12,196 bases of DNA from a bacterium (GTDB lineage Bacteria; Zhuqueibacterota; Zhuqueibacteria; Oceanimicrobiales; Oceanimicrobiaceae): positions 1 through 12,196 of the forward strand of contig JBHHXT010000146.1 of the NCBI GenBank assembly GCA_046757165.1, written 5' to 3'. Of this stretch, positions 135-12,196 are shown one piece after another. Position numbers and translations under genes: made by a program. How positions within the stretch are numbered: position 1 is the first letter of the stretch; each line of letters opens with the position of its first letter. The notes under the pieces are model-generated. The model was not told the origin of the DNA and searched no databases. It saw nothing but the letters and a program-made list of their open reading frames with translations.

Positions 135-243
135 CTGTTCGTCGTCGATACGCCTACTGATGCGAGCAAACGATTCCTGGAACGGCGACCTCCCCAACCG
201 CATAAAAAGTTGGAAATCATCTCAAAATTTCGTTTATTATTCC

Positions 244-3200
244 ATGATGCACACCAAACGACGCTTCTTGCTGGTTTGTTTTTTCTCTCTCCTGTCCCTC
301 CGGGCGGCGGCGAAAGAAGGCGATCCTTCTATTTTCGTCGTTGAGGAACGCAGTGCGGACCGTATCGTGTTTGCGCTGCGGCCGTTTGAGATCGACGTGA
401 GACGACTGAAAACGGAGGGGGGGGCATACGATGAAATCAATGTTCCTCAATATGGCGTGAGCACAGAGCCTGGCCTGCCCATGCTGCCAGAATCCGCCGT
501 CCTGGTGGTCTTGCCGCAGGGCGTGTCTGTGACGGCCTCTGTCCTGACCCGCGAGTTTGAAGATATTCCGGATGTGAACGTGCTCCCGGCGCCTGTGTTC
601 GCAGATGATGGTCCGGCCCCTGACGCTCCTGCCCTGTATCTTGAAAATGAGCGGGTCTACGCCTCCCGTGCTTTCTGGCCGACCCATCTGGTGGAGGTTG
701 GGGAAACAGGGGTGTTGCGTGGCCAGCGGGTGGCGAGGATCATCATCCGGCCCGTACAGTACAACCCGGGGCTGCAAACGCTGCGGGTTTTCAGGAAACT
801 CCGGGTTCTGGTGCGGTTTAGCCGGCCGGTGCTTTCTAAGCCAGCCAGCCAGCCCGGCGCCCGGCGTGATTTCTTCGCTGCGCTCAACCGCTCGGCCTTC
901 ATCACGGATCCACCTTTCGACCGCACCGGATTTAAGCAGCCTGCGGGCAGACGGCTTTTACAGGATGATGACTGGTACAACCCGCAGTTCGATTACACGA
1001 AGTTAGCCGTTGAGGAGGATGGGCTGGTTGCGGTGACCTATGACGAGCTGGCGCAAGCCGGCGTGGCCGTCGACATGCTGGAGTTGAGCACGCTCAAACT
1101 TCTCAACAAGGGCCAACAAATCCCGCTGTGGATCGAAGGTCCGGCAGCAAGTCGCTTTGGGCCTGAGCACACGGTGTACTTCTACGGCCGGCGCAACAGC
1201 AGCACGGCAGCGTATTTTGATTTCTATAGCGACACGAACATCTACTGGCTGACTTCCGGCGGCGAGGCCGGCATGCGATACAAGTTGCAGGAGCAGCAGA
1301 GCGGCGCGGCAGCCGTTTCTGATTTTTATTGGCAAAGGTTGCACCTGGAGCAGGACAACCTCATGCACCGCTCAAACGGCTCCAGCGTCATCGACCAGGA
1401 CGAAGGGTGGATCTGGCGCACCTTTTTTGAAGACGAGCGCGGGACGTTCGATTTCGACCTGGATGCCATTTACGAGCCGGCGGCGACCTGCACGTTGAGA
1501 GTCAGACTCAATGGCACGACGCGCGACCCGGTCGACCCGGACCACCATGTGCGGGTCACGCTGAACGGGACGGTTGTGGCGGAGGCATTTTTCGACGACC
1601 GTGAAGCGTATCTCCTGAATCAAGAACTTTCGACCAGCTTGCTGCTGCCGGGCCGCAACCGGCTGGAGATTCATCTGCTGCCCGGCAGCGGGGCGACGGT
1701 CAATCAAATCTATCTGGACTGGTTCGAGCTGATTTATGCGCGCAGACATGTGGCCACGCCGCAAGGCCTGGCGTTCGAACAGCCGGGCACCGCCGGCCTG
1801 CCAACGGCGGTCAACCTGCGAAACTTTCGTGAGGCGGAGGTCGTTGTCTTCCAGCCTGACCGGGCAAAAATGTGGCAGCCCCAGGCCGAGCGGCGTTCCT
1901 TTCTCAGTGTGGAATCCGCCGGGTTTGATGATGGCAAGTTTGTTCGCTTCCAGATCGATTTCGTGCCCTACTTATTCAACTCGAGGGGACATCATCTGGC
2001 GGTGCTCGATGCGCAAACCGGCGCGCCCGAGTTTCATCGTTTCGACACCAACCTCTCCTCCCAGGAGGCTGAGGCCATGGCGGAGTTCATCAACAGCCTG
2101 CCGGCGGGAACTCGTGTTATGGCCGGCATTGTGGATGAGGGGACCGCCAGCATGACCGAAAGCGCTTACCAGGCGCTCGAAAGTCTGGGCAGTGGGCTGG
2201 CGCGGGAGGTTGCCTGGCGCGACTCCTGGGCCCTGATTGGGCAGAAAGGGGCTGCCAGCGGCTCTGTGCCGGAAGCGTTGTCGCGACGACTGAGTGGGCC
2301 GGTGACGGTTCGGGATACGCTGCGGGATGAGGCTGCCTGGCGATACAGTGTGACGTTTCAGGATACCTCGCTGGCACCGGCGTTCTATTTTGCCGCCGGC
2401 AAATCTCAGGCGAAGAAGGTGGTGGCGATTACACCAGACCAGAGCAGCATTCTCCGCGACCCGAACCAGGGCGCAGACTATCTGATCATCAGCCACCGCA
2501 ATTTTCTTCCGGCAGCGCAAAGACTGGCCGACTACCGCCGGCAGCACGACGGCTTTCGCTGCCAGGCCGTGGATGTCCAGGACGTGTATGATGAGTTCAA
2601 CTTTGGCATCGAGCATCCGCGTGCCATCAAGGCGTTCGTCGAGTTCACCAGCTCAAACTGGCAGGTTCCCGGGCCAACGTTTTTGTTGCTTTTCGGAGAT
2701 GCAACCTGGGACCCGAAGCAGCTTCTTCCGGAAGCGAGCAAGCGGAACTTTGTGACCTCATACGGCATCCTGGTGTCGGATAATTGGTATGCGGCTCTGG
2801 ATGGCCCGGATGACCTTCTGCCCGACCTCTTTGTGGGACGAATTCCGGTTGAAACCCCGGAGCAGGCCGAGCTGGTGGTTGACAAGATCATCTTCTATGA
2901 ATCACAACCATTCGCGCCCTGGAGCAAGGAATTTCTCTTTCTGAATGGCGGCATCACGAGCGCAGAGCAACGTATTTTCTTGTCGCAGGCGGACACGCTG
3001 ATTGCGAATTACCTGGATTGGCCCTCGTTTCAGGGCAAGGCGTTCAGTTTTAATAAAACCGGCAATGAGGGCATCACGCAAGCTTTGCGCCGCAAGGTGG
3101 GAGACCGAATTGCCGAGGGCACGATATGGGTGAATTTTCTCGGGCACGCTGGCAGCGCCATCTGGGACATCGACATCGGCAATCCGGACGAATGGCAGAA

Positions 3201-6015
3201 CACCATTTTCCCGTTCATGACCGGCATGTCGTGTCATTCTGCGCGCTTCGCCAATCCGTTCGCCAACAGCTTGAGCGAGATCTATTTTATTCATCCCAAC
3301 GGCGCCGCGGCCTATTGGGGCTCCAGTGGCTTCGGGTATATCACGCAGGATTTCTTTCTCCTGCACGGTTTGTACAAAGCCGTGGCCCGTGACACGGTTC
3401 GGCGCGTGGGCGCCGCGACCACCGCGGCGAAAATCCATTTGTGGCAGGTGCTCGGCGACCAGATACGCAGCCGGTACGTCATCGACCAGTACACCCTGGT
3501 CGGGGACCCGGCGTTACGGCTCAACTTGCCCGACCAGCCGGAGCTGGCGGTACAGGCCGGGGAGATCACGTTTGATTCGGACTTTCTGTTGATTGCGGAT
3601 TCCACCACCACGCTGGCTGCAAAGATTCGGAACTATGGCCTGGTGCCTCAGGATAGCATCGACGTGCGGTTTTCCTTTTCAGGCGCCGGGCTGGCTTCGA
3701 CGCGCATCGATGAGGTTCGGGTGGCGCCGTTCGGCACCACCGACTCGCTTTTTGTGGCCTGGGATATTCCCGGCCAGCCGGGCTCCTACACCGTGGAAGT
3801 GCACCTGGACCCGCAGAACGAGATTTTCGAGCAGGATGAAAGCAACAACTCAGCAGCCGCCGGGATCGCGGTGTTTACTTCAGATTTGACTCTCATCAAA
3901 CCGTCTGACTTTGCCGTCATCAAGAGCTCGCAGCCAATGCTGGTCACCACCAACTCGCGGGCGCTCGATGGGGATCTGGGTTACTTTTTTGAGGTGGATA
4001 CATCGGCGAGCTTTGACAGCCCGGTGGTGGAGCAATCGCCGCGGGTTGAGCCGGGCAAGCTGGTAACGGCCTGGCAAACAGCGCTGCCCGCTGTCGGTGT
4101 CTACTTCTGGCGCGTCCGCACCTTTGACGGAGAGAACTTTGGCCCGTGGGCCAGCTCATCCTTTCTCTACGATTCCTCCTTCTCCTTTGAATGGCAGCAG
4201 GGTCATGCCAGCCAGTTCGAGAAAAATGACAGGGATGACCAGCTTGGCCCGGCAGCAGGCCACGAGATCGCTCTGAGGAGAAATCTGATCGTCTATGAGG
4301 CCGAATCGGGTGGTTTTTCCGACGGCAACTTCGCCTTCCTGCGCCGCAATGGTGAGTTTTTCGGGCCAAACCGAAGAGGCCACAACGTGGCGGTTTTTGA
4401 TGAAACCGACGGCGCGTTTTTGACCGCTGAAGTCTTTGATACCTTCGTCGATGCAGGAAATGCAGAGGCCCTGGCCCAACTCATCGATGACTTGCCTGAT
4501 GGCAGGATCGTAGTTGTTGCCATTCGCGATGAAGGAACAGTTTCCATGACCGAGTCTGCTTATCTGGCGCTCGAAGGTCTCGGCAGTGGCCTGACCCGGC
4601 AGGTGGGATTTCGCAACTCGTGGGCGCTCATCGGACACAAAGGCGCTGCAATCGGCTCGGCGAAGGAGGCGGTGCACTCGGTCGGTGAAGGCCCGGTGGC
4701 TGTGGTGGATTCTGTTTACCGGTTTGCCAGGGCAGGCCGCATGGTTTCCACCCAAATCGGACCCGTGGGCGACTGGGGCTCTGCACGGTTTGACTACACC
4801 GCTTCCGGCCAAAATGAGCAGATCGAATTTCGTGTTCTCGGACGGCGGCGGAACAGCGCGGCCAGCGACACATTGCTGAGCGCCGCCATCGGGGCTGCAC
4901 AAGTCGATCTTTCCGGTGTCGATGCCAGGCAATACCCCAGAATCCAGCTCGAAGCGCGCTTCATCTCCGAAGATGGCCTCACGACCCCCAGGCTGAGGTC
5001 GTGGGCGGTCGATTTCACCCCGCCGCCGGACCTGGTCGCCGGCGCAGAATCGTTCGAAACCGGGCGTGACACCGTGCAGGCCGGTGTTGACATCGACCTG
5101 ACGCTTTCCGTAGGCAACTTTGGCCTGACAGACAGCGACAGTTTTTCGGTTCGCATCGTGGCCGACCGGGAGCGGGCGAACAAAGAAGTGGTTGCGGCGT
5201 TCCGGACCGAGGGGATTGCCGTGGACAACCTGGCCACCTACACCGCCCTGCTGCAGACACAGGACTTGCTGGGAAAGGTGAGGGTGCGGGCGCAAATCGA
5301 TGCTGACGATGAAATCGCCGAAATCAACGAGAACAACAACAGTGTCTCGACCGAAGTCTGGGTCGTGCGAGACACCCTCAGCCCGGATATTCGCGTGACC
5401 TTCGATGGCCGCGAGGTGGTCGCCGATGAATTTGTTGGCGCCAACCCGGAAATTGTGGTGGAGATTCGCGACCAGGGCGCCCTGACCCTCACCGACACCG
5501 GGCGCGTGTCGATTTTCCTGGATGAACGGAAGGTGAAGTATGGCTCCGGGTCAGGCGAGGCGCAGTTTCTCCCGCAGCAGAGCCAGGCGGATCCGGCGCT
5601 CAAAGCGCTGGCGCTCTTTCACCCAAGCCTGTCGCACGGTCCGCATCAAATCGAAGTCGTTGCCAAAGATGCTTCGAACAACCTGCAGTATTTTCGCACC
5701 GAATTCGCGGTCAGCGAGCGCTTTGTGCTGGCGAATGTGATGAATTTTCCGAACCCGTTCCGCCGCTCGACTAGCTTCACCTATCTTTTGACACAGGAGG
5801 CCGACCGGGTTCAGATCAAGATCTACACGGTCTCCGGCCGCTTGATCCTGGTCTTGGACGCCGTGCCCGGAGAAGTGGGGTACAATCAAGTGCCGTGGGA
5901 CGGCCGCGACCGGGACGGTGATTCTTTGGCCAATGGCGTCTATCTTTATAAGGTCATCGCCACCAGAGGGGGGGAACAGTCAGAGGCGGTGGAGAAGCTT
6001 GTCGTGATGCGATGA
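244..6015 (+). CDS. Large secreted C25-family cysteine peptidase (gingipain/PorU-like) with C25 propeptide, two ILEI/PANDER domains, CARDB-like Ig domains and FlgD-Ig/T9SS-like C-terminal domain
   Basis: ORF is open from 160, but the ATGs at 244/247 give a classic signal peptide (MHTKRRFLLVCFFSLLSLRAAA|KEG). Propeptide motifs EPGLPMLP and IRPVQYNP. PorU-like KLAVEEDG...YSDTNIYWLT. C25 core ADYLIISH, VDVQDVYDEFNFG, FLLLFGD, SDNWY...DLFVGRIPV, NFLGHAG (His codon 3145-3147), GMSCHS (Cys codon 3232-3234), YTLVGDPAL. CARDB-like DPQNEIFEQDESNN and DADDEIAEINENNN. C-terminus NFPNPF...IKIYTVSGRLI...WDGRDRDGDSLANGVYLYKV...KLVVMR. Confidence 0.9.
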   Translation: MMHTKRRFLLVCFFSLLSLRAAAKEGDPSIFVVEERSADRIVFALRPFEIDVRRLKTEGGAYDEINVPQYGVSTEPGLPMLPESAVLVVLPQGVSVTASVLTREFEDIPDVNVLPAPVFADDGPAPDAPALYLENERVYASRAFWPTHLVEVGETGVLRGQRVARIIIRPVQYNPGLQTLRVFRKLRVLVRFSRPVLSKPASQPGARRDFFAALNRSAFITDPPFDRTGFKQPAGRRLLQDDDWYNPQFDYTKLAVEEDGLVAVTYDELAQAGVAVDMLELSTLKLLNKGQQIPLWIEGPAASRFGPEHTVYFYGRRNSSTAAYFDFYSDTNIYWLTSGGEAGMRYKLQEQQSGAAAVSDFYWQRLHLEQDNLMHRSNGSSVIDQDEGWIWRTFFEDERGTFDFDLDAIYEPAATCTLRVRLNGTTRDPVDPDHHVRVTLNGTVVAEAFFDDREAYLLNQELSTSLLLPGRNRLEIHLLPGSGATVNQIYLDWFELIYARRHVATPQGLAFEQPGTAGLPTAVNLRNFREAEVVVFQPDRAKMWQPQAERRSFLSVESAGFDDGKFVRFQIDFVPYLFNSRGHHLAVLDAQTGAPEFHRFDTNLSSQEAEAMAEFINSLPAGTRVMAGIVDEGTASMTESAYQALESLGSGLAREVAWRDSWALIGQKGAASGSVPEALSRRLSGPVTVRDTLRDEAAWRYSVTFQDTSLAPAFYFAAGKSQAKKVVAITPDQSSILRDPNQGADYLIISHRNFLPAAQRLADYRRQHDGFRCQAVDVQDVYDEFNFGIEHPRAIKAFVEFTSSNWQVPGPTFLLLFGDATWDPKQLLPEASKRNFVTSYGILVSDNWYAALDGPDDLLPDLFVGRIPVETPEQAELVVDKIIFYESQPFAPWSKEFLFLNGGITSAEQRIFLSQADTLIANYLDWPSFQGKAFSFNKTGNEGITQALRRKVGDRIAEGTIWVNFLGHAGSAIWDIDIGNPDEWQNTIFPFMTGMSCHSARFANPFANSLSEIYFIHPNGAAAYWGSSGFGYITQDFFLLHGLYKAVARDTVRRVGAATTAAKIHLWQVLGDQIRSRYVIDQYTLVGDPALRLNLPDQPELAVQAGEITFDSDFLLIADSTTTLAAKIRNYGLVPQDSIDVRFSFSGAGLASTRIDEVRVAPFGTTDSLFVAWDIPGQPGSYTVEVHLDPQNEIFEQDESNNSAAAGIAVFTSDLTLIKPSDFAVIKSSQPMLVTTNSRALDGDLGYFFEVDTSASFDSPVVEQSPRVEPGKLVTAWQTALPAVGVYFWRVRTFDGENFGPWASSSFLYDSSFSFEWQQGHASQFEKNDRDDQLGPAAGHEIALRRNLIVYEAESGGFSDGNFAFLRRNGEFFGPNRRGHNVAVFDETDGAFLTAEVFDTFVDAGNAEALAQLIDDLPDGRIVVVAIRDEGTVSMTESAYLALEGLGSGLTRQVGFRNSWALIGHKGAAIGSAKEAVHSVGEGPVAVVDSVYRFARAGRMVSTQIGPVGDWGSARFDYTASGQNEQIEFRVLGRRRNSAASDTLLSAAIGAAQVDLSGVDARQYPRIQLEARFISEDGLTTPRLRSWAVDFTPPPDLVAGAESFETGRDTVQAGVDIDLTLSVGNFGLTDSDSFSVRIVADRERANKEVVAAFRTEGIAVDNLATYTALLQTQDLLGKVRVRAQIDADDEIAEINENNNSVSTEVWVVRDTLSPDIRVTFDGREVVADEFVGANPEIVVEIRDQGALTLTDTGRVSIFLDERKVKYGSGSGEAQFLPQQSQADPALKALALFHPSLSHGPHQIEVVAKDASNNLQYFRTEFAVSERFVLANVMNFPNPFRRSTSFTYLLTQEADRVQIKIYTVSGRLILVLDAVPGEVGYNQVPWDGRDRDGDSLANGVYLYKVIATRGGEQSEAVEKLVVMR
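1903..2310 (+). other. ILEI/PANDER (FAM3/GG-type) domain, copy 1, within the C25 protein
   Basis: SVESAGFDDG...RGHHLAVLD...FDT...AMAEFINSLPAGTRVMAGIVDEG...ALESLGS...WRDSWALIGQKG. Boundaries approximate. Confidence 0.75.
4291..4710 (+). other. ILEI/PANDER domain, copy 2, within the C25 protein
   Basis: EAESGGFSDG...RGHNVAVFD...FDT...ALAQLIDDLPDGRIVVVAIRDEG...ALEGLGS...FRNSWALIGHKG. Clearly paralogous to copy 1. Boundaries approximate. Confidence 0.75.
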
Positions 6016-6114: not shown

Positions 6115-6627
6115 ATGGACGTTGAGTTTGTAGTTGGCAATTTGACCGATTTTGAGGTGGAGGCGATTGTAAATCCTGCCAACTCGGAGGGCGAAATGGG
6201 GGGCGGCGTCGCGGGGGCCCTCAAGAAGGCCGGCGGTAAGAAGATCGAAGAGGAGGCGATGACCCAGGCGCCTATCGCTATTGGCAAGGCGGTGATGACT
6301 TCAGCCGGAAAGCTGAAGAGTGCGTTCATCATCCATGCGCCAACGATGAAAGTGCCGGCACAGCGCACCTCTGCTGAGAATATCACCCAGGCACTACACG
6401 CTGCGCTGACGACCGCCCGGGAATCTGGCATCAGGTCCCTGGCGATTCCCGGAATGGGGACGGGCACCGGCAAGGTGCCGGTCGAGGAGGCCGCCGAAGC
6501 GATGATTGCCGTTATCCGCAATCATCCTCTGGCCAGGAGCACTCTGGAGAAACTCGTTCTCGTGGACCGCAACGAAGCCATGGTGAGAGCGTGGGAACGG
6601 TGCTGGGTTCAGCCGGAAGAAGAGTAA
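6115..6627 (+). CDS. Macro domain protein (ADP-ribose binding/hydrolase, Appr-1''-p processing family)
   Basis: VVGNLT...EAIVNPAN...MGGGVAGALKKAGG...IGKAVMTSAGKL...IIHAPTM...SLAIPGMGTGTG. Good SD. Confidence 0.92.
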   Translation: MDVEFVVGNLTDFEVEAIVNPANSEGEMGGGVAGALKKAGGKKIEEEAMTQAPIAIGKAVMTSAGKLKSAFIIHAPTMKVPAQRTSAENITQALHAALTTARESGIRSLAIPGMGTGTGKVPVEEAAEAMIAVIRNHPLARSTLEKLVLVDRNEAMVRAWERCWVQPEEE

Positions 6628-6671
6628 AAAGCGAGGGGTCGCTCAAGACTCATCTTGCTCGCCCAACTGCC

Positions 6672-6947
6672 ATGTGTCCACATCAACCCATTCGAACCTG
6701 TATCGCCTGTCGCAAGAAAGCGTTCAAGCATGAGTTGCTTCGGCTCGTCAGGACTGGCACAAATGGAATTGAGATCGACCTTGAATATGACAAACCCGGA
6801 CGCGGCGCGTACCTGTGTTTTGAGCGGAATTGTATTGAACGGGCGATGCATGGCAAGCAGCCCCTCCGGCATTTGCACGTGAACCCGCCGCCAGGATTTC
6901 TACAAACACTCCTCGATATCTCGAATGAAAAAGCTCGACCAGGCTAA
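6672..6947 (+). CDS. ylxR: YlxR/RnpM (DUF448) family RNA-binding protein
   Basis: PIRTCIACRKK...ELLRLVR...D...KPGRGAYLC...CIERA signature. Start taken at ATG 6672 because the ORF-track start at 6591 overlaps the macro gene. Confidence 0.88.
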   Translation: MCPHQPIRTCIACRKKAFKHELLRLVRTGTNGIEIDLEYDKPGRGAYLCFERNCIERAMHGKQPLRHLHVNPPPGFLQTLLDISNEKARPG

Positions 6948-7230
6948 AAAACTGCTGGGATTGGCAAATCGCGCTCGCAAGGTGACGCTTGGGATGTCAG
7001 GGACCTCCAACTCGATCAAAAAGGGCCAGTGCCAGCTGTTGATTCTGACGATGGACATTTCCAGCAACACCCGGGCCAAGATCGCCGCAGCCGCCGAAGA
7101 GCGAAAGGTGCGGATTTTGACCTGTGGCAGCAAAGATGAATTTGGCCAGATTTTCGGACGCGCGGAGGTGGCTATCATCGGTGTTGAAGACGCAGGATTT
7201 GCCCGCGCCCTGCAAGAGATTCTCGGCTAA
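6925..7230 (+). CDS. ylxQ: L7Ae/L30e-family RNA-binding protein, YlxQ-like
   Basis: LLGLANRARKVTLG...IKKG...LLILTMDISSNTRAK...SKDEFGQIFGR...AIIGVEDAGFA. Overlaps ylxR by 23 nt. Confidence 0.85.
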   Translation: MKKLDQAKKLLGLANRARKVTLGMSGTSNSIKKGQCQLLILTMDISSNTRAKIAAAAEERKVRILTCGSKDEFGQIFGRAEVAIIGVEDAGFARALQEILG

Positions 7231-7233
7231 CAC

Positions 7234-7836
7234 GTGAACAGAAACTCCTATCTCAAAGAAGATCTGCGCGCTGAAATCAAGCAGAAGCGCGCCTGTCTAA
7301 CCGGCGAGCAGGTTCGCAGGGACAGCGCGCGTATCATTGCCCGGCTCGAGACGGTGCCCGGGTTTGCGCAGGCCAAAAGTGTGCATTGTTACGTCGCCTG
7401 GCAAAATGAAGTCCGGACGCACGAATTGATTCAGGAGCTGCTGCTGCGCGGCACCAGAGTTGTCGTGCCAGCCGTGGACCTGGCCAACCACACACTGGTT
7501 CATTCTGAAATCTCCAGCTTTTCGGACCTGCGACCGGGTGCATTCGGGATTCTGGAACCTGCCCCTGACGCCAGGCGGCCGGTGAACGTCGGCGACATCG
7601 ACGTGGTGATCGTGCCTGCCATTGCGGTGGATATGAGCGGCCACCGGATCGGCTATGGCGGCGGCTACTATGACACGTTTCTGGCGCACATCGGCGCTCT
7701 CAAGGTCGCCCTCGTTTACCATTTTCAAATCGTGGACAAGATTCCCACCCGCAACGAGGATGAGCGAGTGGACATGATCGTCACCGAAAGGGGCGTGTAT
7801 GAATGTGAGATGGAGGAGGACGGAAGGCAGAGGTGA
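7234..7836 (+). CDS. 5-formyltetrahydrofolate cyclo-ligase (YgfA/Fau family)
   Basis: KEDLRAEI...YVAWQNEVRT...VVVP...GAFGILEP...DVVIVPAIAVD..GHRIGYGGGYYD...D.RVDMIVTE. GTG start 3 nt after the ylxQ stop. Confidence 0.93.
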   Translation: MNRNSYLKEDLRAEIKQKRACLTGEQVRRDSARIIARLETVPGFAQAKSVHCYVAWQNEVRTHELIQELLLRGTRVVVPAVDLANHTLVHSEISSFSDLRPGAFGILEPAPDARRPVNVGDIDVVIVPAIAVDMSGHRIGYGGGYYDTFLAHIGALKVALVYHFQIVDKIPTRNEDERVDMIVTERGVYECEMEEDGRQR

Positions 7837-7847
7837 ATCGGCAAGAT

Positions 7848-8052
7848 GTAACGCGACACTTATGTCGCGATAATCGCTTCAGCTCACTTGGGTGGGGGAA
7901 AACACGCTAAAGTGAACTCCAGAACCGGGGCGGGCCGGTGTTCAAGCTTCAGCTTGCGGGGCGGTTGGGGCACGCGGGTTTAATGTCATCCAAAACCACG
8001 CCTTGTGTGGACATCGCTAAAGCGTGAACACCCCTGATTTTGAACACCTGAT
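7848..8052. repeat. Cluster of REP-like palindromic units (BIME/REPIN-like) in the convergent intergenic spacer
   Basis: GTAA-cgcgaca-ctta-tgtcgcg (7848-7869). GGTGTT-caagc-ttca-gcttg (7937-7956, +) faces the inverted copy GGTGTTCACGCTTTAGCG (8015-8032, -). Degenerate pair: cgcttcagct (7875-7884, +) and GGAGTTCACTTTAGCGTG (7903-7920, -). Direct repeat tgaacacc(cc)tgat at 8025-8038 and 8041-8052. Confidence 0.6.
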
Positions 8053-8120: not shown

Positions 8121-8167
8121 CACGTTTCACGTTGAGTTTCACGTTTCACGTCTCACTTCTCACGTCT
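8121..8167. repeat. Heptamer tandem repeat CACGTYT
   Basis: cacgttt cacgttg agttt cacgttt cacgtct cacttct cacgtct. Confidence 0.75.
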
Positions 8168-8677
8168 ATACACGATGGCATTGAGCACGTTGTCGCGGTT
8201 GTCCAACATCGTGAACGTGACTTTGTTTTTCTCTTCCAGGGTCAGGGTGGAGCGCCATTCCCTGATTTCGCCATTCTGGCTAAATGAGCGCCACTGGTGT
8301 TTCAGCGTATTCCCCGCCAGCTCCGCCAGCCCCTCGTTTATCGTGCCGTCTTCGTCGAATGACCAGAAGACGAGCTGCCCCAGAACCGGCTGCCAGCCAT
8401 AGAGGGTGAAAGCAAACCGTTGTGATTTGCCGTTTCGTTTGACCTGGTTGTTCACTTCCAGGAAACTCTTGTTGAGTGTCCATTTGAAGCTGAGCTCGGA
8501 AACAAAGGGTTCTCCATCTGGCGTGGTGCCGTGGCCGACCCAGGTGCCGATGAAAAGATTGGCGATTTGGGGCAGAGTGCTGCTTTTTCCGGGCTGTGCT
8601 TTTGCCACGGGCATGGCTACAAACATGAGCAGCATGGAGAAAGATGAAATGAACAGGCCGGAGGTCTTATTGAACAT
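8153..8677 (-). CDS. Secreted hypothetical protein, predicted beta-barrel (DUF1579/lipocalin-like)
   Basis: Signal peptide (LFISSFSMLLMFVAMPVAKA|Q). FIGTWVGHG GxW motif. Alternating beta-strand pattern (YGWQPVLGQLVFWSFDEDG). SD GAAAGGAAG before the ATG. Confidence 0.75.
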   Translation of the reverse strand: MFNKTSGLFISSFSMLLMFVAMPVAKAQPGKSSTLPQIANLFIGTWVGHGTTPDGEPFVSELSFKWTLNKSFLEVNNQVKRNGKSQRFAFTLYGWQPVLGQLVFWSFDEDGTINEGLAELAGNTLKHQWRSFSQNGEIREWRSTLTLEEKNKVTFTMLDNRDNVLNAIVYRREK

Positions 8678-8710
8678 AATCTTCCTTTCATGGGTTTGGT
8701 TATGTTCAAT
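8669..8710. promoter_or_regulatory. Perfect 11-bp inverted repeat covering the start codon and enclosing the SD
   Basis: attgaacataa (8669-8679), 20 nt, ttatgttcaat (8700-8710). Confidence 0.5.
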
Positions 8711-8735
8711 TTACAAAAAATGTCAAATATTCCAA
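8708..8735 (-). promoter_or_regulatory. Candidate sigma70-type promoter for the 8677 gene
   Basis: Minus strand TTGGAA (8735-8730), N16, TAAATT (8713-8708). An overlapping TTGACA lies at 8726-8721. AT-rich island. Confidence 0.4.
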
Positions 8736-8915
8736 GTGTTTATCGCACCTCGGAAGGATTCTGCTCATCGCCGCCGGGGCGGGCAGGAAAGACGTTGCTT
8801 GTTGTGCAGGTTTCTCCAGCTTACCCGGGGTAATGATGACGGGGACGTCACCGGATATCGTGTACTTGCTCACAGCGTGTGCAACGACCAGTTATTCGTG
8901 ACAGCCCCCGTCTTC

Positions 8916-8942
8916 AGTCGGTGGCGTTGTTGGGATGTTACA
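8916..8942 (-). promoter_or_regulatory. Candidate ECF-type promoter TGTAAC-N16-CGACT
   Basis: Minus strand TGTAAC (8942-8937), 16 nt, CGACT (8920-8916). Matches the generic ECF AAC/-35 and CG-/-10 architecture, and an ECF gene lies in the same cluster. Confidence 0.4.
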
Positions 8943-8952
8943 AAAACCGGCC

Positions 8953-9303
8953 CTAGCCGCTGATGATGCCGATGACGTGGCCCTCAGGGTCTGCCAGGAG
9001 GGCGAAGGTGACGTACCCGGGGATCTCTGTAATCGGAACGATGGTTTTGCCGCCCAGACTTTCCGCCTTGTCCAGGGCCGCCTGCAGGTCCTCTACCTGG
9101 ACGTAAAAGGTAACGTGTCCGGGATTGCCCTCTTCTGCGGCGCCGATACCACCGCCGATACTCTTATCGCCCGCGGCCTCGACCAGGCCGTAGTTCATGG
9201 GATTGTCGGCGTTGATTTTCCAGTCAAACAGGTTACGGTAGAAGCTTTGCAGATTTGCTCCATTTTTCCCCAGGACTTCGAAATGTACGACAGGTGCTGC
9301 CAT
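8953..9303 (-). CDS. VOC family protein (glyoxalase/bleomycin resistance-like)
   Basis: PVVHFEV...FYRNLFDWK...IGGGIG...VTFYVQVEDLQAALDKAESLGGK...FALLADPEGHVIGI. SD GAAAGGAA. Confidence 0.92.
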   Translation of the reverse strand: MAAPVVHFEVLGKNGANLQSFYRNLFDWKINADNPMNYGLVEAAGDKSIGGGIGAAEEGNPGHVTFYVQVEDLQAALDKAESLGGKTIVPITEIPGYVTFALLADPEGHVIGIISG

Positions 9304-9366
9304 GATATTTCCTTTCTGTTATGTTCGGTGAATTTGTGGTTCGTGAATTGTTTTGGCTAAGAAAAC

Positions 9367-9732
9367 TCAGGTCGTACTGACGACTTTGGCCCTTTTGCCG
9401 AATCTTTGTGTGGCAAAGCCGAGGATCAACCCAACGAGGGTTCCGGGTGCCATAATCTCGATATAGTAGTGCTGACCGCTTTCATCTGGAAAAGCGGCGA
9501 CGATGAAGGCGAGAATCAATCCGACGGCTGCTCCAAAAACAAGTCCTTTGCCGATAGAATAGACTTTGCTTGCGAAGAATCCAATGATCACGCCTGCTAT
9601 GAGTCCTTTCAGTCCTGAGAATGTAATGATACTGAGGATTTGAGGTGCGGCCTCCGGGTAGAAGAGCGCTGAGAGACCATCGAGGACACCAAGAATGCCC
9701 CCTAATATCAGGCCAAGAAGTGGTTTCTGCAT
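9367..9732 (-). CDS. Small integral membrane protein, ~4 TM helices, Gly-rich, unknown function
   Basis: Four hydrophobic segments with GxxxG patterns (LLGLILGGILGVLDG; KGLIAGVIIG; GLVFGAAVGLILA; PGTLVGLILG). SD GGAGG spacing favours ATG 9732 over 9735. Confidence 0.8.
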   Translation of the reverse strand: MQKPLLGLILGGILGVLDGLSALFYPEAAPQILSIITFSGLKGLIAGVIIGFFASKVYSIGKGLVFGAAVGLILAFIVAAFPDESGQHYYIEIMAPGTLVGLILGFATQRFGKRAKVVSTT

Positions 9733-9782
9733 CATTCCCTCCTTTCTGAAGAGTGATTTAGTTGATGGTTACCTACCCTTCT

Positions 9783-9795
9783 ATTAACTGTTAAT
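9783..9795. promoter_or_regulatory. Perfect palindrome ATTAAC-T-GTTAAT (possible operator)
   Basis: Located in the spacer between the kinase stop and the membrane protein start. Confidence 0.3.
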
Positions 9796-9806
9796 GGTGG
9801 CGCTCT

Positions 9807-10886
9807 TTACAGTTGTCTCAAAAAGAAGATAAAAAGCCGCACCAGCACATAGACGAGAATTAGGAAGACAAGAAATTTATTTTGTTTCAGCCTGCGCCAG
9901 ACGGTCTCCAGCAAGTTCTCCTTGTACGCAGAAACCGGAAAGCCGTTCAAGTAGTTTTCGATGTCTGCCGTCAGTTGCGGCACATTGTCGTAGCGGTCGT
10001 TTTTGTCTTCCGCTGTCGCTTTTTGGATGATGGCGGTGAGCTGCCTGGGAAGTTTGTAAGATGTTCTCTTGACCAGCGCTGGCAGGCCCTTTTCTTTTGC
10101 TGCAAAGGTCTGCGACGAAGAGGGTGTTGAGGTTGAGCGAGCAAGTAGGAAACTCAAGATAGCGCCGAGGGCATAAATATCCGTTCGTTCATCTATGGCT
10201 GTGATGTCGCCGCGCTGCTGCTCCGGCGCCATGTAAGGCGGTGTGCCCATGACTGTCCCATGTTGAGTGAGATTCTGGGAGCTGGTGGGGATCGGGAGCA
10301 TCCGCTTCGGCAAGTTTTGGCGCATGATATTTGTGGGCGTGGTCGACGAGTGTAGCTGATGTTCTGCGGAGAGCACTTTCGATAAGCCCCAATCCATGAC
10401 CAGCACTTCGCCAAAATCTCCAACCATGATGTTATCTGGTTTCAAGTCGCGGTGCACGACTTTGTGTGCATGTGCGAAGGCCACCGCCTCGCATGCTTTT
10501 TGGAAGACGCGTAGGACCTCCGGCAGCGATGAGGGTTGCTTGACCTGAACATCAAGTCGCGCGCCTTTTACGAATTTCATGGTGTAGAAGATTCGCCCAT
10601 CTGGCAGTCTCCCCACATCGTGAATCGGGACGATGCCCGGGTGTTCGAGGGCTGCAATGATGTACGCCTCTTGCAACATGCGCTGGGCCAGGTCGTTTTC
10701 GCCCCCGAACTGGTTTAGGATCTTTAGCGCGAGGTTGCGGTGTAGTCTGGTGTCTTCGGCGAGATAAACTGTGCCCATTCCGCCCTGGCCGATTCTTTTG
10801 ATACAGCGGTAAGGTGTTTCTGAAAGGTCCGGCAGGTCGACGACAGCGCGGAGATGACTCAGGACTTTGTCAGGCAGCCATGTCAT
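9807..10886 (-). CDS. Hanks-type Ser/Thr protein kinase with a single C-terminal TM anchor
   Basis: IGQGGMGTVY, ALK, EAYIIAALEHPGIVPIHD, VVHRDLKPDNIM, DWG, GTPPYMAPEQ, DIYALG, DRY. C-terminal KFLVFLILVYVLVRLFIFFLRQL. ATGA overlap with the sigma gene. Confidence 0.95.
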   Translation of the reverse strand: MTWLPDKVLSHLRAVVDLPDLSETPYRCIKRIGQGGMGTVYLAEDTRLHRNLALKILNQFGGENDLAQRMLQEAYIIAALEHPGIVPIHDVGRLPDGRIFYTMKFVKGARLDVQVKQPSSLPEVLRVFQKACEAVAFAHAHKVVHRDLKPDNIMVGDFGEVLVMDWGLSKVLSAEHQLHSSTTPTNIMRQNLPKRMLPIPTSSQNLTQHGTVMGTPPYMAPEQQRGDITAIDERTDIYALGAILSFLLARSTSTPSSSQTFAAKEKGLPALVKRTSYKLPRQLTAIIQKATAEDKNDRYDNVPQLTADIENYLNGFPVSAYKENLLETVWRRLKQNKFLVFLILVYVLVRLFIFFLRQL

Positions 10887-11665
10887 TCAAGCTCTGACTT
10901 CTGCGCCGGCCTGGCCGTTTCGAAGTGCAGGCCCAGGAGTGAGCTTGCTTCGTTCTGGAACTCAGTCTCTGTCATCGTGATTTCACGTAGCTTTTGTAAC
11001 AAGATTCGGCGGAATTCCCGTCTGGCGCGGGCAAGGTTATTGGTCACTTGGGTGACGTGCAGTTTGAACTCCGCAGCGAGCGTCTCGTAGGTCGGTTCGT
11101 CGGTTTCATTCTGCAAGTCATAGCGCTCAAAAATGAGGAAGCAAATCGTTCTGTCCTGGCTGGCAAGGGTGTCTCTGAGCTCTTCAACGGATAAGACAAA
11201 GAGCTGGCGCACCCATTCGTGATAGAAAAAATCCTCGGCCGTCTGGTTCTCTGCCGCCTGTGAAAAAGCCAGTTCAGTTTCCGCGCCTTCGAAGTCCAGT
11301 GACAGGATCTGCCTGTCTCCGCCACGTTTGATGCGGCCGGCTGCCCTCTCGCTATTTGCGATAAATCCATGCAGGCAGGTGCGCAGATAGGTTCGGAACC
11401 GGGCTTTGGTGGGATCGAAGTTCTTGAAATAATCCTTCTCAAGCGCGGTCATGAAAAAGGCCTGTGTCAGATCCTTTGCGTCTTCGTTGCCCTTGCGCCA
11501 TTTGACGCGGATGGTTTTGTAGACCGGCTTCCAATAGGCTCGTACCAGCACTTCGAGCGCCCGGGTTCGCTCTTTCGGGTTATCGCTGCGGGCGGCCTCA
11601 ATTGCGGACCACCTGGTGAGTGGGAATTGACTCGCATTGCCGCCGATTTTGGTGTCTTTATCCAT
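10883..11665 (-). CDS. ECF-type sigma-70 family factor of the kinase-associated type
   Basis: FPLTRWS...ALEVLVRAYWKPVY...DAKDLTQAFF...RFRTYL...KRGG, long linker, region-4 HTH TYETLAAEFKLHVTQVTNNLARARREFR. Start is 11665 (MDKDTKIGG) or 11683. Neither has a clear SD. Confidence 0.88.
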   Translation of the reverse strand: MDKDTKIGGNASQFPLTRWSAIEAARSDNPKERTRALEVLVRAYWKPVYKTIRVKWRKGNEDAKDLTQAFFMTALEKDYFKNFDPTKARFRTYLRTCLHGFIANSERAAGRIKRGGDRQILSLDFEGAETELAFSQAAENQTAEDFFYHEWVRQLFVLSVEELRDTLASQDRTICFLIFERYDLQNETDEPTYETLAAEFKLHVTQVTNNLARARREFRRILLQKLREITMTETEFQNEASSLLGLHFETARPAQKSELE

Positions 11666-11701
11666 GCCGGGTCTGGTCGCCATGCAACGGCGTCTGAGAT
11701 T

Positions 11702-12196
11702 TCAACCGCTTGGAAACGATTTCGGCCTGAACCCTTCATCATTGATGACTTGCATGTTATCCCCGGACGGGGCGAGGACAAACAGCCCTTGTTTGTACGC
11801 AAAGCGGTCAACGCCTTCTTCTATGCTCATGCCAGCTACACCACCATACAAGGTAGGTCGTTTCAGAGTCGGGAAGAAGGCAAAGAAGCGCGGCAGCTTT
11901 TCGAGGATGTTCTCGACATCCCACCGTTTCAGTCTGTGTTTGACTTCAATGACCACGACGCATTCGGGGCCGACTCCGACGACATCGACCTCCATGGTTT
12001 CGCCATTCAACGGGGCGGCCAGACGGGGGTGAATTCGACTGAACTCGATGTGGCGTTGCCGAAAGAGTTGAACGACGGCGGCCAGCACCATCTCTTCGGC
12101 CGTCCTGCCCAACGAATCTGTGATGCCTGAAACTTGCCTGGTGAGATTTTTGACCAGCTTGTCCGTTTCCTGCATCCGTCGGTCGGTTTCTTGCAT
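11702..12196 (-). CDS. DUF3782-like coiled-coil protein with C-terminal PD-(D/E)XK nuclease-like domain (5' end probably outside the window)
   Basis: QETDRRMQETD heptad repeats. LGRTAEEMV...EVDVV...VVVIEVKHRL...DV...L.RF..FFP...LYGGVAG...FAYKQGLFVL...NDEGFRPK. The ORF runs to the window edge. Confidence 0.8.
   Translation of the reverse strand: MQETDRRMQETDKLVKNLTRQVSGITDSLGRTAEEMVLAAVVQLFRQRHIEFSRIHPRLAAPLNGETMEVDVVGVGPECVVVIEVKHRLKRWDVENILEKLPRFFAFFPTLKRPTLYGGVAGMSIEEGVDRFAYKQGLFVLAPSGDNMQVINDEGFRPKSFPSG

Follow-up and report, generated by a model that had tools for sequence, protein, structure and literature searches.

A conserved cassette of an ECF-type sigma factor, a sensorless Ser/Thr kinase and a four-helix membrane protein

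Introduction

Several groups of extracytoplasmic function (ECF) sigma factor are established as kinase-associated: ECF43, ECF59, ECF61, ECF62, ECF217, ECF267 and ECF283 (PMC7826278). Here, we describe a related arrangement in a 12,196 nucleotide (nt) stretch of DNA, hereafter the window, which is one entire contig (JBHHXT010000146.1) of a Zhuqueibacterota genome (family Oceanimicrobiaceae; assembly GCA_046757165.1). The window encodes an ECF-type sigma factor, a Hanks-type Ser/Thr kinase and a small membrane protein with four transmembrane helices (the 4-TM protein). We refer to these genes, together, as the cassette.

In the literature consulted, the sigma factor's direct phosphorylation is shown for ECF43 members only. 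Examples are EcfP and PknT, from Vibrio parahaemolyticus, and EcfK and PknS, from Xanthomonas citri. As in the window, the kinase is encoded immediately after the sigma factor, has one membrane helix, and no anti-sigma factor is present (PMC7826278, PMC8999054, PMC13147305). EcfP is phosphorylated at the third position of the DAED/STTA motif (PMC8999054), and EcfK at several sites besides the main one (PMC13147305). The window clade differs in other respects. While ECF43 kinases have outside tetratricopeptide repeat (TPR) domains, the window kinase ends three residues past its helix, and an extracytoplasmic sensor is missing. Similarly, ECF43 sigma factors swap DAED for Ser/Thr residues, whereas the window sigma factor retains D-A-x-D. 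Finally, unlike ECF43 loci, the cassette continues with the 4-TM gene, which carries its own promoter-like motif.

A preliminary description of this DNA, made from the sequence, had listed five genes (sigma factor, kinase, 4-TM protein, VOC protein and secreted barrel), an ATGA overlap between the first two, and no adjacent anti-sigma gene. Our reading of the open reading frames (ORFs) bears this out. All five are on the minus strand between 8153 and 11665 (Table 1), the ATGA overlap can be read directly in the sequence, and the gene directly after that for the sigma factor encodes the kinase. The closest homologues among named records are from Calditrichaceae and KSB1.

Results

Three genes form the conserved unit

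The preliminary description had grouped all five genes as one signalling system. We gathered 99 loci containing a 4-TM gene, with one search contributing the best 80 of 555 matches. Six loci, being repeats or the window itself, were dropped; some near-copies remain. Where at least 400 nt of upstream DNA was present (74 loci), the tail of the kinase was found within 950 nt in 66 cases, and was missing in eight. For the 34 loci with at least 2200 nt upstream, 29 have both kinase and sigma factor genes, three have the kinase gene only, and two have neither.

The reverse test used three profiles and 301 genomes of Acidobacteriota, the phylum of the genome containing locus L005. Note that the cut-off for a close sigma factor was placed in a score gap (above 240 versus below 180 bits) chosen after the scores had been viewed, and that one genome counted, G087, is unpublished. 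The close sigma factor is in 30 genomes, the 4-TM gene is in 30, both are in 29, and 270 have none of the parts. The exceptions are G108, with the sigma factor alone, and G096, with a weak and partial 4-TM match alone. Among the 29 genomes with both, the kinase tail scores at least 70 bits in 28; in the other, G192, the kinase is cut by the contig end. The distance from the kinase gene to the 4-TM gene behind it is about 1.1 kb or less in 23 of the 29. In the other six it is on another contig, far off or divergent, yet retained. Conversely, no 4-TM gene was found in 35 genomes having only the wider sigma factor family described below. Among 61 relatives of the window's genome, nine have the close sigma factor, ten have the 4-TM gene and eight have both. 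In one of these relatives (G018) the 4-TM gene is at a contig end and, in another (G041), a weak copy contains a stop codon.

We conclude that the conserved unit is three genes, encoding the sigma factor, the kinase and the 4-TM protein. The proposed tie between the 4-TM protein and the sigma factor/kinase pair thus passes the co-occurrence test, at 66 of 74 loci and in 29 of 30 genomes with the close sigma factor. The broader grouping stands in part: these three genes are linked far above chance, but the VOC and barrel genes are not fixed members.

In three relatives (G009, G037 and G058; loci L115-L117 and L121-L123) the sigma factor gene is on a different contig from the kinase and 4-TM genes.

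Table 1. Positions of the cassette and accessory features, numbered from the first letter of the window
Feature	Position	Strand	Basis
ECF-type sigma factor, 260 amino acids (aa)	10883..11665	-	Sigma70_r2, Sigma70_ECF, TIGR02937
Hanks-type Ser/Thr kinase, 359 aa	9807..10886	-	Pkinase, E 4e-33
Kinase membrane helix, residues 338-356	9819..9875	-	hydrophobic stretch and conserved face
Two-part promoter-like motif, predicted sigma factor target	9779..9809	-	TAAAGA 9809-9804, GTTAATAGAA 9788-9779
4-TM Gly-rich membrane protein, unnamed family, third core gene	9367..9735	-	predicted structure and homologues
Single-domain VOC protein, accessory	8953..9303	-	Glyoxalase model above cut-off
DUF1579/THAP4-like beta-barrel with signal peptide, accessory	8153..8677	-	predicted structure and hydropathy

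A promoter-like motif travels with the 4-TM gene

The gaps between kinase and 4-TM genes share a two-part pattern, not mentioned in the preliminary description: TAAAG(G/A)A and, past a spacer, GTT(G/T)AATAGAA, usually beginning on the TAA codon of the kinase gene. The window copy does begin on this stop codon, and has one extra base in the spacer. A matrix was built from 49 seed sites, drawn from 98 genes, with the window copy left out of training. The window motif then scored 20.4, compared to 18.8 for the best of 1860 shuffles. For held-out 4-TM genes, 20 of 29 scored at least 10, versus 6 of 870 single-base shuffles. Note that the motif accompanies the 4-TM gene in both divergent arrangements, and also where an insertion follows the kinase gene. 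Hence, it is not an artefact of the stop codon. The exact pattern has eight matches in five genomes with the sigma factor and none in the control, although this comparison is partly circular, some sites being seeds. Five relatives without the sigma factor contain one match between them. For a looser form, there were 15 matches in nine genomes with the sigma factor and 16 in the other 52. Given the two-part shape, position and distribution, we are confident in predicting that the motif is the promoter of this sigma factor. No sigma-70-type promoter was found in the window between 7800 and 12196.

Genes behind other copies of the motif encode DinB, VOC, DUF1761, DUF4287/DUF5655, AHSA1 and other SRPBCC proteins, a methyltransferase and a secreted barrel. 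One of the VOC proteins is 57% identical to that of the window and, in G144, the motif runs from the kinase gene directly to a VOC gene. The motif precedes the 4-TM gene, moves with it and, at other sites, lies ahead of VOC, SRPBCC, DinB, DUF1761 and barrel genes. Hence, the sigma factor likely has the 4-TM gene as a target, and not just as a partner. This bears on the preliminary description, in which the 4-TM protein was the missing sensor or modulator. The tight tie to the sigma factor/kinase pair agrees with that idea. A purely upstream role fits less well: the 4-TM gene has its own predicted sigma factor-dependent promoter, which is better matched by a feedback modulator or core effector.

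General autoregulation of the sigma factor was considered and rejected: the window has a single motif site and, of the loci with two, just L001 has one upstream of the sigma factor gene. Strong copies of the motif in G020 and G018 (loci L183 and L174) precede a conserved gene encoding about 360 aa.

The sigma factor retains an acidic core-binding motif

The window sigma factor has sigma2 and sigma4 regions only, as is the case for group 4 (ECF) proteins. The TIGR02937 model matches residues 36-220 with 47.7 bits, above cut-off, and the Sigma70_r2 match is likewise above cut-off. The start codon at 11665 agrees with the N-termini of homologues; a second in-frame ATG is at 11683. For the predicted structure, the top fold matches are AlgU, sigmaE and SigH, none reaching an E value of 0.001, and a profile search of solved sequences gave no match. 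Sequence comparison indicates that the protein is part of a distinct clade inside a wider family of kinase-neighbouring sigma factors, which have an N-terminal F-x-T-x-x-S motif. In a quick tree, close clade and wider family split with a value of 100 in the Shimodaira-Hasegawa-like approximate likelihood ratio test (SH-aLRT). Note that F-x-T-x-x-S is common to the wider family, not the close clade alone, and we take it to be typical of ECF59-like sigma factors. The linker between sigma2 and sigma4 is longer than usual.

Phospho-activation of EcfP had been put forward as a precedent for the window. At the level of residues, this fails. The window sigma factor retains D62-A-K-D65 at the DAED position and the third residue is Lys, Glu, Gln, Arg or Ala, never Ser or Thr, in 29 of 29 aligned sigma factors. 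Hence, the residue-level mechanism of ECF43 does not transfer. Other positions are conserved as Ser or Thr: T17, S20 and position 92 in all 29 sequences, S27 in 27, and T205 and T208 in 26. In the structural model, T17 and S20 fall in a low-confidence stretch ahead of the first helix. From the coupling of the genes, and from known kinase-associated groups (PMC7826278), we infer that the sigma factor is phosphorylated. The kinase probably does so at a site other than that of EcfP, with T17 and S20 as candidates.

The kinase ends at its membrane helix

The catalytic motifs expected of a Hanks-type kinase are intact: the Gly loop (GxGGMG), Lys and Glu (K55 and E73), HRDLKPxN, DWG in place of DFG, and GTP..APE. 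The preliminary description had the kinase as tail-anchored and sensorless, and this proved correct. The lone hydrophobic helix is followed by three residues, RQL, and Pfam searches of the protein detected no domain besides Pkinase. The same applies across the clade. In 57 of 66 kinases paired with a 4-TM protein, 13 residues follow the helix Tyr, and the maximum is 14. Within the helix, Y346 and R350 (Arg or Lys) are found in 66 of 66 sequences and L342 in 63. Because their spacing is i, i+4 and i+8, these residues share one helix face. Judged by these alignments, the kinase is without an outside sensor domain throughout the clade.

As a control, we read 23 sister loci from the wider sigma factor family. 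Of these, 19 have a kinase gene, 18 of which are complete. At least 90 residues past the first helix, or past the kinase domain, are retained by 14 of the 18. Hence, while sensorlessness extends to the whole close clade, sister kinases mostly keep long C-terminal parts. Note that several kinase genes at sister loci are not co-directional with the sigma factor gene, and so may not encode its partner. None of the 23 loci has a 4-TM gene. The window's genome has one copy each of the close-clade sigma factor and 4-TM genes. It also encodes dozens of other Hanks kinases, about 25-34% identical to the window kinase.

Could the kinase be, in part, a membrane-tethered anti-sigma factor, with its N-terminal segment holding the sigma factor and catalysis releasing it? 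The segment is conserved among kinase homologues. Furthermore, at locus L013, a 72-aa ORF (4710-4928, plus strand) consists of this segment fused in frame to the membrane tail, with the catalytic domain missing. The ORF overlaps the sigma factor gene, and the motif and 4-TM gene lie downstream. However, a search for relatives of the mini-protein returned a single sequence from one lineage, which may reflect decay or an assembly error, and sigma factor and kinase genes are on separate contigs in three relatives. We consider a role of this type quite improbable.

The 4-TM protein has invariant polar residues in the membrane

The 4-TM protein has 122 aa when read from 9735; homologues favour the second ATG, at 9732 (about 121 aa). 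An AlphaFold model contains four long helices with a mean predicted local distance difference test (pLDDT) score of 92.9. Simple hydropathy found three of the four. The Gly-rich sequence, and intramembrane Asp, Lys and Glu residues, had been recognised previously. Across 66 homologues, D19 and K43 are invariant, as are P97 and Q110, and position 93 is Glu or Gln in 64. The family comprises 210 matches from a single query and 728 representatives at 50% identity.

No Pfam family matched the window protein above cut-off, and Tim17 is touched by 3 of 66 members with a best E value of 2e-4, which is not significant. Foldseek places complex I chains (Y/AM) and a chain of the TIM22 complex, presumably Tim17-like, at the top, with E values of at least 0.57 and template modelling (TM) scores of about 0.5; again, these are not significant. 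With VIA-align, the best Z score is 7.1, and Tim17-type structures rank 16th with 5.5. No relative was found among sequences of solved structures, and the ESM Atlas returned only unnamed clusters of the family itself. Note that such failed searches do not make the fold new.

Because of how basic residues are distributed, the ends and middle loop of the protein should be inside. This topology would set D19 and E93 at the depth of R350 of the kinase, within the membrane's outer half. On balance, we lean towards the 4-TM protein acting on the kinase within the membrane, with R350 and Y346 against D19 and E93. Covariation scores for the 66 paired sequences yielded nothing usable, the top pairs being at variable positions; the key residues give no signal because they are invariant.

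Tandem pairs of diverged 4-TM genes occur at loci L001, L002, L005, L084 and L093. Where the upstream region is present, the motif is before the first copy only. Four database fusions of kinase and 4-TM protein (P0156, P0247, P0352 and P0373) were rejected. Parts of one or both proteins are missing, and these are likely deletions or assembly joins.

VOC and barrel genes are exchangeable accessories

The VOC protein has a single glyoxalase domain and its best solved relative is Rv0577 (E 1e-15). The barrel has an N-terminal hydrophobic stretch and a DUF1579/THAP4-like model (TM score 0.87). VOC matches occur at 14 of 93 loci, one being a fragment, and a close orthologue of the barrel is at one of 93, that of the closest relative. 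The slot behind the 4-TM gene is variously filled by VOC, DUF1579, THAP4-like or other barrels, AHSA1, YciI, DUF1761, DUF4287 and PNPOx. The motif and 4-TM gene are separated by a gene for a secreted AHSA1 protein in G037 and G058. We suggest that VOC and barrel genes are interchangeable accessories, with the VOC gene likely read from the internal promoter. VOC-, SRPBCC- and barrel-type families bind or modify small toxic molecules. A passage on the SigG regulon bears on this role (PMC7826278 supplement). The earlier suggestion that VOC is a detoxifying output fits: VOC-type genes are located behind the predicted promoter and have the look of outputs.

A different role for the VOC protein is as a kinase-binding inhibitor, rather than a detoxifying enzyme. 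KbpA, of Streptomyces, and Rv0577 are VOC-fold proteins that, like the window VOC, are encoded beside a Ser/Thr kinase. AfsK can no longer autophosphorylate once bound by KbpA (PMC6988585). The window VOC weakly matches the KbpA model NF053614, with 25.6 bits (E 9e-6) over one domain, far under the cut-off of 250 for this two-domain family. Unlike KbpA, it is single-domain, of a common type and optional, being exchanged for unrelated genes of small-molecule-binding families. We regard KbpA-like inhibition as very improbable.

Fusions of the 4-TM protein were surveyed among the top 7998 candidates. Homologues longer than 240 aa number 119, and 111 of them have a further hydrophobic stretch and a C-terminal domain, belonging to two subfamilies (76 and 35 members). 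A precomputed THAP4-like label is attached to eight of the 119. Members of both C-terminal subfamilies are also found unfused, encoded behind the 4-TM gene. The window barrel matches them weakly, with profile probabilities of 16% and 2%; the fold class is shared but the sequence family is not. We thus rejected close membership of these subfamilies. The preliminary description had tied the secreted barrel to the 4-TM protein. This is right insofar as barrels are often fused to 4-TM homologues, but the window barrel is a swappable accessory.

These fusions raise the possibility, proposed in the preliminary description, that the 4-TM protein is a receptor subunit of the activating kind. By itself, or together with a barrel (fused or free), it would bind the signal and switch the kinase on, and the promoter would provide positive feedback. 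The 111 long homologues would place a barrel-type domain outside, after the fifth hydrophobic stretch, and sister kinases keep outside or multi-helix domains of their own. There is also precedent: BceS-type kinases are activated only with the help of a membrane partner, and UgtL, an activator, is encoded in the regulon (PMC8534201). Conversely, in the consensus the fifth stretch ends in A-x-A, like a signal peptide, and so the fused barrel may be cut off. Most 4-TM homologues have no barrel, and that of the window is near the cassette in the closest relative only. We consider activation of this kind rather unlikely.

Other features of the window

An Rfam search of the whole window gave no match, and the gap between VOC and barrel genes has mild RNA folding only (z -2.05). 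An intergenic repeat of roughly 130 bp (7900-8033), with 17-nt inverted arms, resembles a repetitive extragenic palindrome (REP) or miniature inverted-repeat transposable element (MITE), without an Rfam match. The same genome has 12 further copies, 77-95% identical, spread over nine other contigs. A PD-(D/E)XK/NERD-like gene (11702-12196, minus strand), with a repetitive N-terminus, is cut by the contig end. It stops 36 nt ahead of the sigma factor start and has a paralogue on contig C256. On the plus strand, 160-6015 encodes a C25 peptidase of the gingipain type (1951 aa), which has two ILEI domains, CARDB and, at its C-terminus, a FlgD-Ig/sorting domain. This is followed, at 6115-7836, by consecutive macro domain, YlxR, L7Ae-family and 5-formyltetrahydrofolate cyclo-ligase genes.

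Discussion

We tentatively propose, with a probability of about 0.4, that the 4-TM protein is a feedback modulator of the sensorless Hanks kinase, akin to MgrB or LiaF, serving as both brake and signal input. In the LiaF-LiaS pair, too, a membrane protein controls a kinase. According to our model, the kinase would activate the sigma factor through phosphorylation, and the sigma factor would transcribe the 4-TM and accessory genes from the internal motif. The 4-TM protein would bind the kinase helix, restraining the kinase, until a membrane-active or hydrophobic toxic compound relieved the restraint. Small toxic molecules would be bound or modified by the outputs (VOC, SRPBCC, DUF1579/THAP4 barrels, DinB, DUF1761 and YciI). 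Phosphorylation of PknS needs no stimulus when the periplasmic domain is missing (PMC13147305). Hence, a membrane-truncated kinase likely needs an outside brake. MgrB, a membrane protein that inhibits PhoQ, is encoded within the regulon, and accessory proteins of this type usually repress (PMC8534201). By analogy, if the 4-TM protein acts on the kinase, inhibition is somewhat the more probable effect.

Alternatively, the 4-TM protein could be a core output, protecting the membrane or handling ligands with periplasmic barrels, while the kinase senses the membrane itself via amphipathic and membrane helices. Consistent with this, the 4-TM gene is the first behind the predicted promoter, can leave the kinase gene, occurs in tandem or second copies, and is fused to barrels otherwise seen as regulon genes. 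However, all other regulon genes are dispensable and swappable, whereas the 4-TM gene is kept in 29 of 30 genomes with the sigma factor, and the invariant polar face of the kinase helix suggests a membrane partner. This explanation is possible but less probable. We would say the same of a split receptor kinase. Here, the outside domain of an ancestral receptor kinase would have been lost and the 4-TM protein, often fused to a swappable barrel or SRPBCC domain, would have become a receptor subunit that signals by charged helix contact. The sigma factor, activated outside DAED, would induce its own receptor.

Several points count against the feedback modulator model. The evidence is all genomic, and a core effector would account just as well for the strict co-retention and the separate promoter. 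Four of the 18 sister kinases are also short or soluble, without a 4-TM gene. Since D62 and D65 are kept acidic, and Ser/Thr is missing from the EcfP site in all 29 sequences, the sigma factor may not need to be phosphorylated. One relative (G020, 74% complete) has sigma factor and kinase genes but no 4-TM gene was found. Close sigma factors at loci L139, L140 and L141 have no kinase gene, 4-TM gene or motif nearby, and G108 lacks both partners genome-wide. For the motif, 9 of 29 held-out 4-TM genes score under 10, and relaxing the pattern still further gave no enrichment in four other genomes (7 matches, compared to 19 in the control). The window copy is weaker than typical and only third of 14 sites scoring at least 17 in its genome, which has no match to the exact pattern. 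Finally, the genomes are kin, and so do not count as independent, and the profiles derive from linked loci. Hence, we give no p-value for co-occurrence.

The clade reduces the kinase to a catalytic domain and one helix, paired with a small membrane protein and a defined motif. The three-gene circuit is found in about a tenth of the sampled Acidobacteriota genomes, and in relatives of the window's genome. Two questions become approachable: how the membrane controls a sensorless Ser/Thr kinase, and how phosphorylation may activate a sigma factor that keeps an acidic core-binding motif. The unnamed 4-TM family also gains its first functional handle from the cassette context.

Among known systems, MgrB-PhoQ, UgtL-PhoQ and BceAB-BceS involve a membrane protein that controls a kinase via membrane helices, as we propose for the 4-TM protein, and both MgrB and UgtL are transcribed by the systems they control (PMC8534201). 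These partners, and LiaF, act on two-component histidine kinases, whereas the window kinase is a Ser/Thr kinase of the Hanks type. No sequence or fold link between them and the 4-TM protein was found. The closest layout is that of ECF59 and ECF217 (with ECF61 and ECF62) from Planctomycetes. As in the window, the kinase gene follows that for the sigma factor, there is no anti-sigma factor, and the sigma factor linker is longer (PMC7826278 supplement). Kinases of ECF59s1 have six helices, and those of ECF61 have five or more, which is near the one plus four of the window (PMC7826278 supplement). Conversely, these groups are described as belonging to Planctomycetes in 100% of cases; they have no small membrane gene that is conserved, and their promoter motif is different or unconserved (PMC7826278). 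A review gives ECF59 Ser in place of DAED (PMC8103513), which is not so in the window sigma factor. Thus, the window clade resembles ECF59/217 in layout, as judged by group descriptions. The cassette is not described in the open-access literature searched, which leaves most subscription papers out of reach. Compared with all these systems, it is a variant of kinase-controlled ECF signalling that is conserved, seems not to have been described, and consists of three core genes and a defined motif.

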